A DNA stretch of 32,517 nt from a virus (Duplodnaviria > Heunggongvirae > Uroviricota > Caudoviricetes): IMG/VR virus record IMGVR_UViG_2718218100_000008; one strand, 5' to 3'. A model generated the notes under the pieces. It was given only the letters and a program-made list of their open reading frames with translations. It was not told the origin of the DNA and made no database searches. Each line of letters starts with the position of its first letter. Position 1 is the stretch's first letter. Both the position numbers and the translations under genes were made by a program. Positions 3,362 through 9,636 of this stretch are shown piece after piece.

Positions 3362-3694
3362 ATGAACCCTTATATTTATCTTGGTGGTGCAATACTTGCA
3401 GAGGTCATTGGTACAACCTTAATGAAGTTTTCAGAAGGTTTTACACGGTTATGGCCATCTGTTGGTACAATTATTTGTTATTGTGCATCATTCTGGTTAT
3501 TAGCTCAGACGCTGGCTTATATTCCTACAGGGATTGCTTATGCTATCTGGTCAGGAGTCGGTATTGTCCTGATTAGCTTACTATCATGGGGGTTTTTCGG
3601 CCAACGGCTGGACCTGCCAGCCGTTATAGGCATGATGTTGATTTGTGCCGGTGTGTTGGTTATTAATTTATTGTCACGAAGCACACCACATTAA
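3362..3694 (+). CDS. emrE: Small multidrug resistance (SMR) efflux transporter EmrE
   Basis: 110-aa product MNPYIYLGGAILAEVIGTTLMKFSEGF...LLSRSTPH matches E. coli EmrE as recalled; four hydrophobic helices; first in-frame ATG chosen at 3362 (the ORF-track start at 3308 is an upstream extension). Confidence 0.9.
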   Translation: MNPYIYLGGAILAEVIGTTLMKFSEGFTRLWPSVGTIICYCASFWLLAQTLAYIPTGIAYAIWSGVGIVLISLLSWGFFGQRLDLPAVIGMMLICAGVLVINLLSRSTPH

Positions 3695-3938
3695 AAATAA
3701 TTTCTTTTAAAAGACTGCAATATGGCGGTTCATATCTTTACATGGGCCGCTTTTGTTAATGTTTTTAGTTTTTGTGTATTCTTTTGTGCCTTCAAGATTA
3801 TTGCGTAAGCAAATTGCAATACGATTATTGTTGTATATTCAAGATAGTGTGATCGTAATTGTCTTTTTAAATAAAAATTAAACAAAAATTATATCTCACC
3901 ACTAAGGTTTATAAAAGCATAAGTTAGCAGGTGTCACC

Positions 3939-5465
3939 ATGAAAAAAGCCATAGCATATATGCGATTTTCATCACCAGGTCAGATGTCTGGCGACTCATT
4001 AAACCGACAGAGAAGACTTATTGCTGAATGGTTAAAGGTAAATAGTGATTATTATCTTGATACCATAACATATGAAGATTTAGGATTAAGTGCATTCAAA
4101 GGAAAGCATGCACAATCAGGAGCTTTTTCGGAATTTTTAGATGCTATAGAGCATGGTTATATATTGCCAGGAACTACATTGTTAGTTGAAAGTCTGGACA
4201 GACTTTCAAGAGAAAAAGTCGGTGAAGCGATTGAACGTCTGAAATTGATTTTGAATCACGGTATTGATGTTATAACTCTTTGCGACAATACAGTCTATAA
4301 TATTGACTCTTTGAATGAGCCATATTCATTAATAAAAGCCATACTTATAGCACAAAGGGCAAATGAAGAAAGCGAGATAAAGTCAAGTCGGGTTAAATTA
4401 TCATGGAAGAAAAAACGGCAGGATGCACTGGAATCAGGTACGATTATGACGGCGTCTTGTCCGAGATGGCTCTCCTTAGATGACAAAAGAACGGCTTTTG
4501 TTCCAGACCCCGACAGGGTGAAAACTATTGAGCTAATTTTTAAACTCAGGATGGAAAGGCGCTCATTGAATGCAATAGCCAAGTATTTAAATGATCATGC
4601 TGTAAAGAATTTCTCAGGAAAAGAAAGTGCATGGGGGCCTTCTGTAATTGAAAAATTATTAGCGAATAAAGCTCTGATAGGTATATGCGTACCTTCATAT
4701 CGTGCAAGAGGGAAAGGGATAAGTGAAATCGCTGGCTATTATCCCAGAGTCATATCAGATGATTTGTTTTACGCTGTACAGGAAATTCGGTTGGCACCTT
4801 TTGGTATTAGCAATAGTAGCAAGAATCCTATGCTAATAAATCTACTTCGAACAGTTATGAAGTGTGAGGCTTGTGGTAATACCATGATTGTTCATGCGGT
4901 ATCTGGAAGTTTGCATGGCTATTATGTTTGTCCGATGAGAAGATTACATCGATGTGACAGGCCATCAATAAAGAGAGATTTGGTTGATTATAATATCATT
5001 AATGAATTGCTTTTTAATTGTAGCAAAATTCAACCAGTTGAAAACAAGAAAGATGCTAATGAAACTTTAGAGTTAAAAATTATTGAGCTTCAGATGAAAA
5101 TTAATAATTTAATCGTTGCATTGTCTGTCGCGCCTGAAGTTACCGCTATAGCAGAGAAAATAAGACTATTAGATAAGGAATTACGAAGAGCTTTGGTATC
5201 ATTGAAAACTTTGAAGAGTAAAGGTGTAAATTCATTCAGTGATTTTTATGCTATTGACTTAACCAGTAAAAATGGACGAGAGTTATGCCGTACACTTGCC
5301 TATAAAATATTCGAAAAAATCATAATTAATACGGATAATAAAACCTGTGATATCTATTTTATGAATGGCATTGTTTTTAAACACTATCCTTTAATGAAAG
5401 TAATATCCGCCCAGCAGGCGATAAGTGCTCTCAAATATATGGTTGATGGTGAGGTTTATTTTTGA
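3939..5465 (+). CDS. ybcK: Large serine recombinase (resolvase/invertase-type N-terminal catalytic domain plus recombinase domain and zinc ribbon)
   Basis: 508-aa ORF; N-terminal motif AIAYMRFSSPGQ with candidate catalytic Ser; later Cys cluster CEACGN...YYVCPMRRLHRCD typical of large serine recombinase zinc ribbons; AT-rich codon usage; same emrE-adjacent position as ybcK in DLP12. Confidence 0.85.
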   Translation: MKKAIAYMRFSSPGQMSGDSLNRQRRLIAEWLKVNSDYYLDTITYEDLGLSAFKGKHAQSGAFSEFLDAIEHGYILPGTTLLVESLDRLSREKVGEAIERLKLILNHGIDVITLCDNTVYNIDSLNEPYSLIKAILIAQRANEESEIKSSRVKLSWKKKRQDALESGTIMTASCPRWLSLDDKRTAFVPDPDRVKTIELIFKLRMERRSLNAIAKYLNDHAVKNFSGKESAWGPSVIEKLLANKALIGICVPSYRARGKGISEIAGYYPRVISDDLFYAVQEIRLAPFGISNSSKNPMLINLLRTVMKCEACGNTMIVHAVSGSLHGYYVCPMRRLHRCDRPSIKRDLVDYNIINELLFNCSKIQPVENKKDANETLELKIIELQMKINNLIVALSVAPEVTAIAEKIRLLDKELRRALVSLKTLKSKGVNSFSDFYAIDLTSKNGRELCRTLAYKIFEKIIINTDNKTCDIYFMNGIVFKHYPLMKVISAQQAISALKYMVDGEVYF

Positions 5466-5818
5466 GTAATAATCACTTTTTCAACCGTGCTATGGTATGA
5501 AAGTAAAGTAACTACTATGATATTAACTATCGAGCAAGAATATCCCCAGGCACTCAACAGGGCGCAGGTCAACGTGAATCGGTCATGACACGACACCGAT
5601 TTTGCGGAATCAATGTTGCTTATGAATACAACATCCCGCTTAGTACATGTTCAACACATCAGCAAATTTTGAACTGGGTGTGGCACTTAACTGAAAAAAC
5701 ATGGATGACACAAAATGTTACTCGTCGCTTCATTGAAGTAGCTTGTGGATATCACAAGCTAGACTATCGCCAATGATATTCAATTTTTGATTTTTTAGTA
5801 TCAACCTTCCATAATAAT

Positions 5819-5847
5819 GTCACCGGAGCTTGAACAACTCCGGTGAC
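5819..5847. other. Perfect 10-bp inverted repeat GTCACCGGAG-N9-CTCCGGTGAC (strong hairpin or dimeric protein-binding site)
   Basis: Read directly from the sequence; lies in the unassigned spacer between the recombinase gene and ninB; flanking T-runs are weak, so terminator function is uncertain. Confidence 0.4.
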
Positions 5848-5871
5848 TTCTGCGCATTTAAGGGGACTTAA

Positions 5872-5970
5872 ATGCGACCACAATCTGAACTCCTTACCTT
5901 GTCACAGATGCAGAAATGCACCTGCGATGTCTTGCATCCAGCGTTTGATCTCTGCGGAGGTGAAGCGTGA
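5872..5970 (+). CDS. Small ORF (32 aa, [32 protein letters not shown]), possibly ylcH-like
   Basis: ATG preceded by an AAGGGGA Shine-Dalgarno-like motif; stop overlaps the GTG start of ninB/ybcN (GTGA); too short to judge by sequence alone. Confidence 0.3.
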
Positions 5971-6422
5971 ACCTCCCACAAGATGGCATCAAATTACATC
6001 GCGGTAACTTCACCGCTGTCGGTCAGCAGATCCAGACTTATCTGGAAGACGGCAAATGCTTTCGCATGGTGCTTAAACCGTGGCGCGAGAGACGCAGTCT
6101 TTCCCAGAATGCACTCAGCCACATGTGGTACAGCGAAATCAGTGAATACCTCATCAGCAGGGGGAAATCGTTCGCTACTTCAGCATGGGTAAAAGATGCT
6201 CTCAAACACACATACCTCGGTTATGAAACCAAGGACCTGGTTGATGTCGTAACCGGCGAAATCACTACTATCCAGTCGTTACGCCATACCTCCGATCTTG
6301 GTACCGGAGAGATGTATGTCTTCCTGTGTAAGGTTGAAGCCTGGGCGATGAATATTGGCTGCCACCTGACTATTCCACAGAGCTGCGAGTTCCAGCTGCT
6401 GCGTGACAAGCAGGAGGCGTAA
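5967..6422 (+). CDS. ybcN: NinB (Orf) family recombination protein, YbcN-like
   Basis: 151-aa ORF with GTG start; contains the [13 protein letters not shown] motif that resembles lambda NinB; position at the head of the nin block. Confidence 0.8.
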
Positions 6423-9147: not shown

Positions 9148-9605
9148 GCAGAATAACCGCGATTATCTCCGCTCTGCTCATCTGCATCATCGTCTGCCTG
9201 TCATGGGCTGTTAATCATTACCGTGATAACGCCATTACCTACAAAGCCCAGCGCGACAAAAATGCCAGAGAACTGAAGCTGGCGAACGTGGCAATTACTG
9301 ACATGCAGATGCGTCAGCGTGATGTTGCTGCGCTCGATGCAAAATACACGAAGGAGTTAGCTGATGCGAAAGCTGAAAATGATGCTCTGCATGATGATGT
9401 TGCCGCTGGTCGTCGTCGGTTGCACATCAAAGCAGTCTGTCAGTCAGTGCGTGAAGCCACCACCGCCTCCGGCGTGGATAATGCAGCCTCCCCCCGACTG
9501 GCAGACACCGCTGAACGGGATTATTTCACCCTCAGAGAGAGGCTGATCACTATGCAAAAACAACTGGAAGGAACCCAGAAGTATATTAATGAGCAGTGCA
9601 GATAG
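9144..9605 (+). CDS. Rz: Spanin inner-membrane subunit Rz
   Basis: 153-aa ORF matching lambda Rz as recalled; N-terminal TM segment and coiled-coil region. Confidence 0.95.
9364..9546 (+). CDS. Rz1: Spanin outer-membrane lipoprotein Rz1, embedded in the +1 frame of Rz
   Basis: 60-aa ORF; lipobox LVVVGC; proline-rich ([15 protein letters not shown]); matches lambda Rz1 as recalled. Confidence 0.9.
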
Positions 9606-9636
9606 AGCTGCCCATATCGATGGGCAGCTCATGCAA

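Follow-up and report, generated by a model that had tools for sequence, protein, structure and literature searches.

Translational coupling through a leader open reading frame (ORF) with a masked ribosome-binding site (RBS) is known from several systems, for example the mok-hok genes of plasmid R1 and the coat-lysis-replicase couplings of phage MS2. The element considered here lies in the spacer upstream of ybcN, at positions 5466–5970 of a 32,517-nucleotide stretch of viral DNA (IMG/VR record IMGVR_UViG_2718218100_000008), the whole of which is referred to below as the window. Its closest described relatives are the orf33 region of phage 82 (X92588, annotated in 1996) and ylcH (b4588) of the K-12 prophage DLP12, which represent the same element, with 79–84% DNA identity over 5785–5990, the same place before orf151/ybcN, and a palindrome, a small ORF and overlapping stop and start codons that are alike. 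A further copy is found in phage phi80, where the repeat IR4 (JX871397) is hairpin H2 of the same cassette and identical in sequence to that of the window; it is annotated only as a repeat, and the intact 31-codon small ORF is unannotated. In the phage 82 and K-12 records, the palindrome was taken for DNA to which a regulator might bind, and the ORF was listed like any other hypothetical protein. Both features are read differently here, as parts of a leader RNA whose hairpins and short ORF may govern the translation of ybcN.

The spacer is made up of two unrelated things, dead mosaic DNA (5466–5784) and a conserved leader cassette (5785–5970), the features of which are collected in Table 1. 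In the reading that we favour, and to which we attach a moderate degree of confidence, the conserved leader RNA is a translational-coupling gate for ybcN and the remainder of the spacer is a gene remnant. The sequence-level facts behind this reading are that both RBSs and both start codons fall inside conserved predicted hairpins, that the 5′ arm of the last hairpin (H4) lies within the leader ORF, and that the stop codon of this ORF overlaps the start codon of ybcN.

The distribution of the cassette was surveyed by scanning IMG/VR for a 22-nucleotide core and GTDB genomes for YbcN homologues; the loci recovered in this way carry L-numbers below. The survey yielded 109 distinct cassette variants, located before ybcN/ninB-type genes of lambdoid phages across the Enterobacteriaceae (Escherichia, Enterobacter, Citrobacter, Huaxiibacter, Siccibacter, Phytobacter and Klebsiella phages). 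Segment 5785–5990 of the window is 79–93% identical to DNA upstream of ybcN/ninB in DLP12, phage 82 (83.7% to X92588), phi80, HK639, HK225, and Klebsiella and Enterobacter phages. An earlier description of the spacer made from its letters alone, the sequence-only reading, had pointed out the palindrome that forms H1, a perfect 10-bp inverted repeat with a nine-nucleotide spacer at 5819–5847; the repeat is present as described, and related prophages retain it. With a covariance model based on 13 variants, 70 copies were recovered in 64 loci, and the same model found no cassette in lambda or in the regions upstream of the Pantoea and Rosenbergiella ybcN homologues. These Erwiniaceae prophages (L014, L015, L016, and L018) encode YbcN homologues that are 61–65% identical and are directly preceded by another coding sequence and a plain Shine-Dalgarno (SD) sequence. 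A search of Rfam 15 at E ≤ 10 gave no family match, its sole hit being engA at 14.9 bits (gathering score 46, E = 3.6), and no functional study of the leader was found in the literature on ylcH, ybcN, and nin-region promoters.

Perfect 10-bp inverted repeats with loops of 3–12 nucleotides occur five times in the window, against an expectation of 0.36 (200 shuffles, maximum 3), and H1 and H2 are two of the five. The RNA spanning 5816–5972 folds at −58.2 kcal/mol, compared with −39.9 ± 4.3 kcal/mol for dinucleotide shuffles (z = −4.3). Both the inverted repeats and the stability of the fold are beyond chance. In a model-fitted alignment of the 70 copies, 98.2% of cells are paired vs. 22–36% in slid controls, compensatory changes are seen in 24 of 27 pairs, and the covariation score of 0.398 compares with 0.03–0.05 in slid controls and was reached by none of 500 shuffles; the pair counts are, however, inflated by related sequences, and the structure itself guided the fitting of the alignment from which they were taken.

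The individual hairpins, of which the sequence-only reading had described H1 alone, differ in what is conserved. Around 56 distinct variants of the 41-nucleotide H1 segment (stem, loop, and flanks) were collected, nearly all of which form the same hairpin of 9–13 bp at −7 to −23 kcal/mol, with compensatory changes in nine of the ten pairs. Its stems include unrelated sequences (GUCAUCGGAG, UCGCAGUCGG, UUGCUGAUGG, UCUGCCAGCGG, and GGUUGUCAG), and that of phi80 is of an entirely different sequence and still complementary; the family loop consensus is NYUGARCNM, with an invariant UGARC core. In H2, compensatory changes affect all 10 pairs, pairing is kept in 99.9% of cells, and the GGGA loop is present in 65 of 70 copies. 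L012 keeps H3 through a double change from A:U to U:A, with two amino acids altered as a result, and in L017 the hairpin is re-formed by another sequence. The 3′ arm of H4 holds most of the ybcN SD (GGAGG at 5956–5960, its first G in the loop) together with the first two bases of the GUG start codon (5967–5969), and the surrounding segment 5925–5975 folds at −17.5 kcal/mol. An equivalent SD hairpin of 10–12 bp (−12 to −21 kcal/mol) is predicted in all three unrelated tail sequence types. A pairing of AUGCAGAAA with downstream UUUCUGCAU was also considered; it occurs in most copies and is missing from the window, L012, and L017, so that, judged by reading, it provides no conserved switch.

Because G·U pairs outnumber A·C mismatches among the non-Watson-Crick cells (91 vs. 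20 overall) and the minus strand scores low in the covariance model (17.9 bits vs. 136.6 for the plus strand), the substitution pattern indicates that the cassette encodes a predicted plus-strand RNA with four hairpins rather than a DNA operator. The alternative, in which a dimeric regulator binds H1 as duplex DNA and H1 thus serves as the operator of a promoter just upstream, is very unlikely on the same evidence: the arms vary and covary, complementarity being maintained through G·U on one strand only (76 G·U vs. 17 A·C in H1), while the asymmetric, non-palindromic 9-bp centre is conserved, which is the opposite of what a dimer-binding palindrome would display. In addition, the defective prophages Sp8 and DLP12 have no immunity region to supply a cognate repressor. 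The operator view draws instead on position, since in X92588 the homologous 29 bp bear the label “possible regulator-binding site” and follow putative −35 and −10 signals, and since the centre of the palindrome falls at about +10 to +12 relative to the predicted start, as is typical for an operator. It could also account for a conserved promoter-like element with no transcription start site (TSS) at the predicted +1 in the lysogen maps consulted, as for a repressed promoter. A minus-strand terminator or antisense RNA at H1 was rejected: most variants have A·C mismatches, no minus-strand promoter was found, and the minus-strand call of a terminator scan at H1 rests on the complement of the −10 hexamer.

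The leader ORF begins inside H2, which buries both its SD (AAGGGGA, 5860–5866) and its AUG (5872–5874). The sequence-only reading had recognized the ORF, the upstream AAGGGGA, and the GTGA overlap with a NinB-like gene, all of which are present, and had suggested translational coupling. The coupling proposal is strengthened by the conservation of the ORF and by a stop codon that always overlaps the next start, an arrangement that suggests coupling, whereas the “good” RBS attributed to the ORF is predicted to be buried with the AUG in a hairpin of −12 kcal/mol. Of the 70 copies, 69 have an uninterrupted ORF, and its stop forms ATGA or GTGA with the next start wherever a ninB/ybcN-type gene follows. 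In most sequence types, its own start codon, AUG or GUG, falls within the 3′ arm of H2; the L013 type has none that is usable at that place, its in-frame AUG lying further downstream. The frame is kept, with ORF lengths of 31, 32, and 33 codons and 36 or 39 nucleotides from the AUG to the core, so that length changes are multiples of three. The encoded peptide follows a different pattern: its first third is unrelated between sequence types, its C-terminus is dictated by the SD and start of the next gene, and in the linker that follows H2 the amino acids differ between sequence types and the nucleotide motif is kept. From these comparisons, it seems to be the translation of the leader ORF that matters and not the peptide.

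The other possibility to be weighed here is that the ORF specifies a functional small protein of the YlcH family and that the hairpins are incidental to its coding sequence. Retention of the ORF, its core SQMQKCTC(D)FLH(S/P)A, the proper spacing of SD and start codon, and the existing annotations (YlcH in K-12 and orf33 in phage 82, with 20/22 BLASTP identities to orf33 over residues 11–32, E = 4e-15) would fit such a protein. It is nevertheless unlikely, as variants are even over codon positions 1/2/3 (17/16/19 and 10/11/14), with no third-position excess and no sign of purifying selection on the amino acids, the two ends of the peptide behave as described above, and L012 and L017 alter “conserved” residues yet keep H3 paired. 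Searches of Pfam, NCBIfam, and PHROG with the 32-residue peptide, a protein search that the sequence-only reading had proposed, returned no family, and the Prokaryotic Genome Annotation Pipeline lists the ORF as hypothetical in identical O157 genomes. In the sole proteomic table that lists YlcH, the K-12 ylcH RNA was detected and was 2-fold higher under microaerobic conditions, and no protein was recorded, the entry being “X” (PMC8910356).

According to the favoured coupling model, H4 would hide the ybcN start, so that ybcN would not be translatable on its own. A ribosome translating the leader ORF would melt H3 and H4, terminate at the UGA of GUGA, and re-initiate on ybcN. Initiation on the leader ORF would in turn be limited by H2, and the opening of H2 would thus be the control point for translation of ybcN and perhaps also, via polarity, for the nin genes further on and for Q. 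The leader peptide itself would probably be irrelevant. Less firmly, H1, with its variable stem and invariant UGARC loop, probably acts within early rightward read-through RNA as an element of recognition or stability, and a role for the C-rich linker in coupling translation to Rho-dependent polarity towards Q is speculative.

Table 1. Features of the spacer and its downstream gene, in window coordinates.
Feature	Coordinates	Strand	Description
3′ flank of ybcK, common to DLP12-type prophages	5466–5531	+	97.6% identity to K-12 up to 5504; other E. coli matches (ybcK and flank) reach 5531
Junction DNA, O157 lineage-specific	5532–5605		Present only in ~307 O157-type genomes
63-codon ORF, 5′-truncated remnant (by alignment) of a ~88-codon phage gene	5585–5776	+	PHROG 12459/2559; homology begins at ~5606
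Sigma70-type promoter-like element	5787–5815	+	−35 TTGATT 5787–5792, 17-bp spacer, −10 CATAAT 5810–5815 (consensus scan)
Hairpin H1 (the palindrome noted earlier)	5819–5847	+	Perfect 10-bp inverted repeat GTCACCGGAG-N9-CTCCGGTGAC; 9-nucleotide loop CUUGAACAA
H1-H2 link motif	5845–5855	+	GACUUCUGCGC, nearly invariant (alignment conservation)
Hairpin H2	5853–5876	+	Perfect 10-bp inverted repeat CGCATTTAAG-GGGA-CTTAAATGCG; −12.0 kcal/mol
32-codon leader ORF, ylcH/phage 82 orf33 family	5872–5970	+	AAGGGGA upstream; UGA overlaps ybcN GUG (GTGA 5967–5970)
C/A-rich, G-poor unstructured linker	5877–5904	+	A8 C10 G2 U8; nearly invariant ACAAUC..AAC
Hairpin H3	5905–5924	+	CAGAUGCA-GAAA-UGCACCUG, 7 pairs, GNRA loop; −6.2 kcal/mol
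Hairpin H4	5941–5968	+	Minimum free energy (MFE) and centroid folds; −14.2 kcal/mol at 37°C
ybcN, NinB/Orf-family recombination mediator, 151 codons	5967–6422	+	NCBIfam PRK09741 1e-81; PHROG 72 (NinB/Orf)

Upstream of H1, the cassette carries a promoter-like element, TTGATT-17-CATAAT, that matches 9 of 12 consensus positions. The A and the last T of the −10 hexamer are invariant in 111 sequences, and the two hexamers are separated by 17 bp in 59 of the 64 distinct contexts seen upstream. One variant class has a TTGATA 21 bp upstream, too far for a −35; its hexamer at 17 bp is a poor TAATCA, and its −10 is of the extended type (TGTTATAAT). With somewhat less assurance than for the coupling model, this element may be regarded as a putative promoter that is silent or weak in lysogens. 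An intrinsic terminator lies 3–13 nucleotides upstream of the −35 in L011, L012, L027, L097, and L115. In most variants, an inverted repeat, TTGAT-N8-ATCAA (5787–5804), overlaps the −35 and the spacer; one variant class instead has an imperfect palindrome, ATCAYTTTT-N-AAAAGTGAT, and no palindrome occurs there in L012, L013, and L017. As half-sites, TTGAT and ATCAA match those of FNR, but they are 8 bp apart and not 4, and an FNR site was rejected.

Mapping of transcript starts and ends around the palindrome had been proposed by the sequence-only reading, and public maps provide part of the answer. The sole K-12 Cappable-seq TSS listed within the element is weak and lies at 571565 (U00096.2; 572342 in NC_000913.3), 23 nucleotides downstream of the predicted +1. 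It corresponds to the first G of GACUUCUGCGC, at the 3′ edge of H1 (window equivalent 5845), and has no recognizable −10 upstream. Relative to this TSS, the invariant blocks ATAAT and UGA.C fall near −34/−30 and −14/−10, respectively, and sigma32, sigmaE, and sigma54 promoters were rejected from misfitting spacings, by eye only. The SMRT-Cappable-seq supplement lists no TSS for the element. Both TSS maps (K-12 and EDL933) represent uninduced lysogens, and a 5′-terminal hairpin may hinder capping. The prophage small RNAs AgvB/AsxR and PasA-D were also considered and are located 3′ of pR′ or beside lysis genes, not at the spacer.

Apart from the inflated pair counts already mentioned, a number of observations weigh against the coupling reading and its promoter. 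Among the entries listed, the K-12 Cappable-seq data contain no TSS at the +1 predicted from CATAAT, and the EDL933 table of gene-associated TSSs has one for emrE and none for ybcN. The −10 hexamer ends 1–4 nucleotides before the base of H1, yet pairing extends and covaries to the stem base; because of this short distance to the first paired base, a complete H1 would form only in RNA starting upstream. Downstream in DLP12, rusA requires a promoter supplied by an insertion sequence for its expression (PMC4118853). The Sakai RIBOseq supplement has no entry at the leader-ORF coordinates, a weak negative, as coordinates could differ between reference versions. The conservation of the peptide core could reflect a functional peptide and not only H3. 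The invariance of H3 in most copies is partly due to ascertainment, the search pattern having lain inside H3, and the MFE fold of the window itself does not contain this hairpin. Finally, frame +1 is stop-free in 48 of 66 spans, so that the openness of the leader ORF discriminates weakly; this frame is also open because the region is G-poor, and the argument for coupling consequently rests on the frame-preserving indels, the placement of the start codons, and the stop/start overlap.

A different function for the same RNA would be as a transcription-level signal in the early rightward transcript, formed by H1 alone or with H2 and H3. The candidates are a tR2-like terminator or attenuator, a Rho-entry region, and a nut- or put-like antitermination RNA controlling read-through to Q. 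The cassette does occupy the place of tR2 between the ren-side genes and ninB, a complete H1 confined to RNA begun upstream would suit such a signal, and the H2-H3 linker is C-rich, G-poor, and rut-like, although the C-rich stretch comprises only 28 nucleotides. A terminator is disfavoured by the lack of a U-tract after H1, H2, and H3 (H1 is followed by CUUCUGCGC) and by a scan that found no plus-strand terminator, and phages of different N and Q types have the element in common. Lambda nut (boxA/boxB) and HK022 put are likewise hairpin-based, cis-acting RNAs of early transcripts with a conserved loop and stems that may vary. The H1 loop CUGAACA is similar to the boxB loop region of lambda, CUGAAAA. 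Unlike nut and put, the window element has no boxA-like sequence, is ~5 kb from pR-type promoters, has a loop of 9 nucleotides rather than a 5-nucleotide GNRA-like one, and is present once per genome, with no left/right pair: a search for a second H1-like hairpin elsewhere in the window and in phi80 found none. The annotated phi80 nutL, with its core CACGUAAACGUG, is unrelated, and the likeness to put is one of general description. Identity as a nut site is ruled out by the loop length, the missing boxA, the single copy, and the unrelated phi80 nutL, and a transcription-level signal of any of these kinds is considered quite unlikely.

A further idea, for which we see only a slim prospect, is that H1–H3 form a regulatory RNA that binds a trans-acting factor and sets how much early rightward transcription and translation reach the recombination genes and Q. 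The candidate basis for such binding may be the invariant UGARC loop, the two GNRA tetraloops, and the invariant ACAAUC..AAC single strand. If true, this RNA would constitute an unrecognized lytic checkpoint of lambdoid phages, common to heteroimmune phages and independent of N/Q specificity.

The genomic setting accounts for the remainder of the spacer. Genome comparison revealed no difference between the whole window and Sp8, a lambda-like prophage integrated at icd in E. coli O157:H7. Its genes run from int and xis through a truncated replication gene, P, ren, emrE, and ybcK to the spacer, beyond which follow ybcN, ninE, ybcO, rusA, ylcG, and Q. The spacer is a mosaic, with relatives outside O157 only for 5440–5531 and 5785–5990. 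The former segment continues the DLP12-type ybcK region; the 250–280 bp between the two are found only in ~307 O157-type genomes, and a search of the phage collection with the junction DNA at 5532–5605 gave no match. K-12 has ybcL and ybcM at the place of this O157-specific stretch. The sequence-only reading had proposed a translated search of the spacer against AraC- and PEBP-family proteins, as if remnants of such genes might be present; a tblastn search of 5466–5870 with K-12 YbcL (PEBP) and YbcM (AraC) at E ≤ 10 gave no match. Its view that 5466–5870 holds no convincing gene is borne out, there being no intact gene in that stretch, and the RefSeq annotation of identical O157 genomes has none in 5466–5871.

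Because its homology is confined to the C-terminal part of its relatives, in-frame stops lie upstream, and an SD sequence is absent, the 63-codon ORF is, as far as alignments indicate, a 5′-truncated gene remnant, a status that had been suggested earlier from its lack of an RBS. A protein search of this ORF, also proposed at that time, matched the PHROG families given in Table 1, and its relatives are hypothetical proteins of 75–105 residues. The ORF aligns with only the C-terminal two-thirds of the ~88-residue homologues, beginning at INVAYEY; the alignment of full-length homologues contains 25–42 extra N-terminal residues with the pattern LGEET.NSIIEE...LSEQVQIIDG.IV, which the window copy lacks. 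In related prophages, the ~88-codon gene is located between ren and the nin genes. The clearest example is L023 (strain 09A19CPO009), in which an intact 88-residue gene, 76% identical in DNA to the ORF, follows ren and is directly followed by a cassette copy. Pfam and NCBIfam searches with the ORF and its homologues returned no family, and a DDE_1 match of the 63-residue ORF (E = 0.012, below cut-off) was discarded after the true homologues were found. A third perfect inverted repeat, TAGCTTGTG-N5-CACAAGCTA (5739–5761), lies in the 3′ end of the remnant and is absent from the intact L023 homologue. On these alignments, 5466–5784 is non-functional mosaic DNA, in which the tail of the emrE-ybcK cargo insert is fused to a truncated phage gene remnant.

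The cassette also appears to lie at points where modules are exchanged. The homology breakpoint of the window coincides exactly with its left edge, 5785, and the gene that follows it may be of the ybcN type, the ninB type, or another. In six related phages, two copies flank cargo genes (L023, 4170–4480; L142, 509–616; L127, 266–373; L050, 12967–13071; L049, 2280–2387; L115, 6850–6958). The bracketed cargo includes, for example, an antirepressor-like gene of the P22AR type or one that is HolE-like. In L023, L142, L127, and L050, the first copy has a leader ORF of 46–53 codons, which is followed by a very hydrophobic short frame (~29 codons in L023, MEIVMSWPEAIVTVVVTMAMIIVVSIYWG) that recalls leader-coupled small toxins. 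The cassette is conserved between otherwise unrelated modules, with a breakpoint at 5785 and two copies in six phages, which supports a secondary role in evolution, that of a recombination joint. That it is conserved mainly as a “boundary sequence” between modules, with no regulatory function of its own, has little probability, since pure recombination linkers should conserve sequence and not base-pairing, whereas in the cassette unrelated complementary sequences take one another's place in the stems, with strand-specific G·U, and SD sequences and start codons are systematically placed within them. A boundary role is compatible with the coupling reading as a secondary consequence.

Several observations concern the rest of the window. 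In Sp8, the immunity region has been lost, as has the 5′ part of the O-type replication gene. The emrE gene, encoding a small multidrug resistance (SMR) pump, and the ybcK serine recombinase gene form cargo between ren and the nin leader (3362–5465), as in DLP12, and the emrE TSS of EDL933 (1707125) is active in eight of eight Cappable-seq conditions. A perfect 10-bp inverted repeat, TTGAAAGTCT-GGAC-AGACTTTCAA, lies within the ybcK coding sequence (4186–4209). An 11-bp perfect inverted repeat, GAGCTGCCCAT-ATCG-ATGGGCAGCTC (9605–9630), located between the end of rzpD and the convergent 3′ end of bor, may be a bidirectional terminator and has no T-run after it. The Pfam NinB score of the ybcN product, 22.5 bits, is just below the 23.8-bit cut-off.

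If the coupling reading is correct, it bears on how the nin region is viewed. This region, between replication and the Q switch, has so far been treated as dispensable genes read through from pR; a leader conserved in its base-pairing before whichever Orf/NinB-type recombinase gene is present would mean that expression is deliberately gated. It would also offer a testable reason for the poor expression of ybcN-rusA in DLP12, and the annotated K-12 “protein” YlcH would be re-labelled as probably a leader ORF. The cassette is, in addition, a candidate new RNA family for Rfam, and it may provide a precise joint for swaps of cargo (emrE-ybcK, ybcL-ybcM, and antirepressor modules) among prophages of pathogenic E. 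coli.

Compared with its nearest relatives, the window element differs in type and in surroundings. H2 and the first 11 codons are of type B in phage 82 and K-12 and of type A in the window, and the K-12 element follows ybcL-ybcM, whereas that of the window follows a gene remnant. The ren-tR2-ninB region of lambda has the same position, at the boundary of the replication/ren module with the first nin gene, and several relatives have a tR2-like intrinsic terminator just upstream of the cassette; in lambda itself, tR2 directly abuts the ninB RBS, with no promoter-like element, H1–H4, or leader ORF. From mok-hok and the MS2 couplings, the window element differs in having no sequence homology and no identified antisense RNA or repressor protein, in a coupling that is predicted from sequence, and in downstream genes that serve recombination and are not toxins, although the first copy in the two-copy phages precedes a hydrophobic ORF of ~29 residues. 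The likeness lies in the architecture: the downstream start is in a hairpin whose other arm belongs to the upstream ORF, stop and start codons overlap, the upstream ORF has a structured start of its own, and the leader peptide is poorly constrained. Among described systems, the cassette is best placed, as a new and uncharacterized member, with the leader ORFs that are translationally coupled to masked start sites, and it is also a candidate RNA family.

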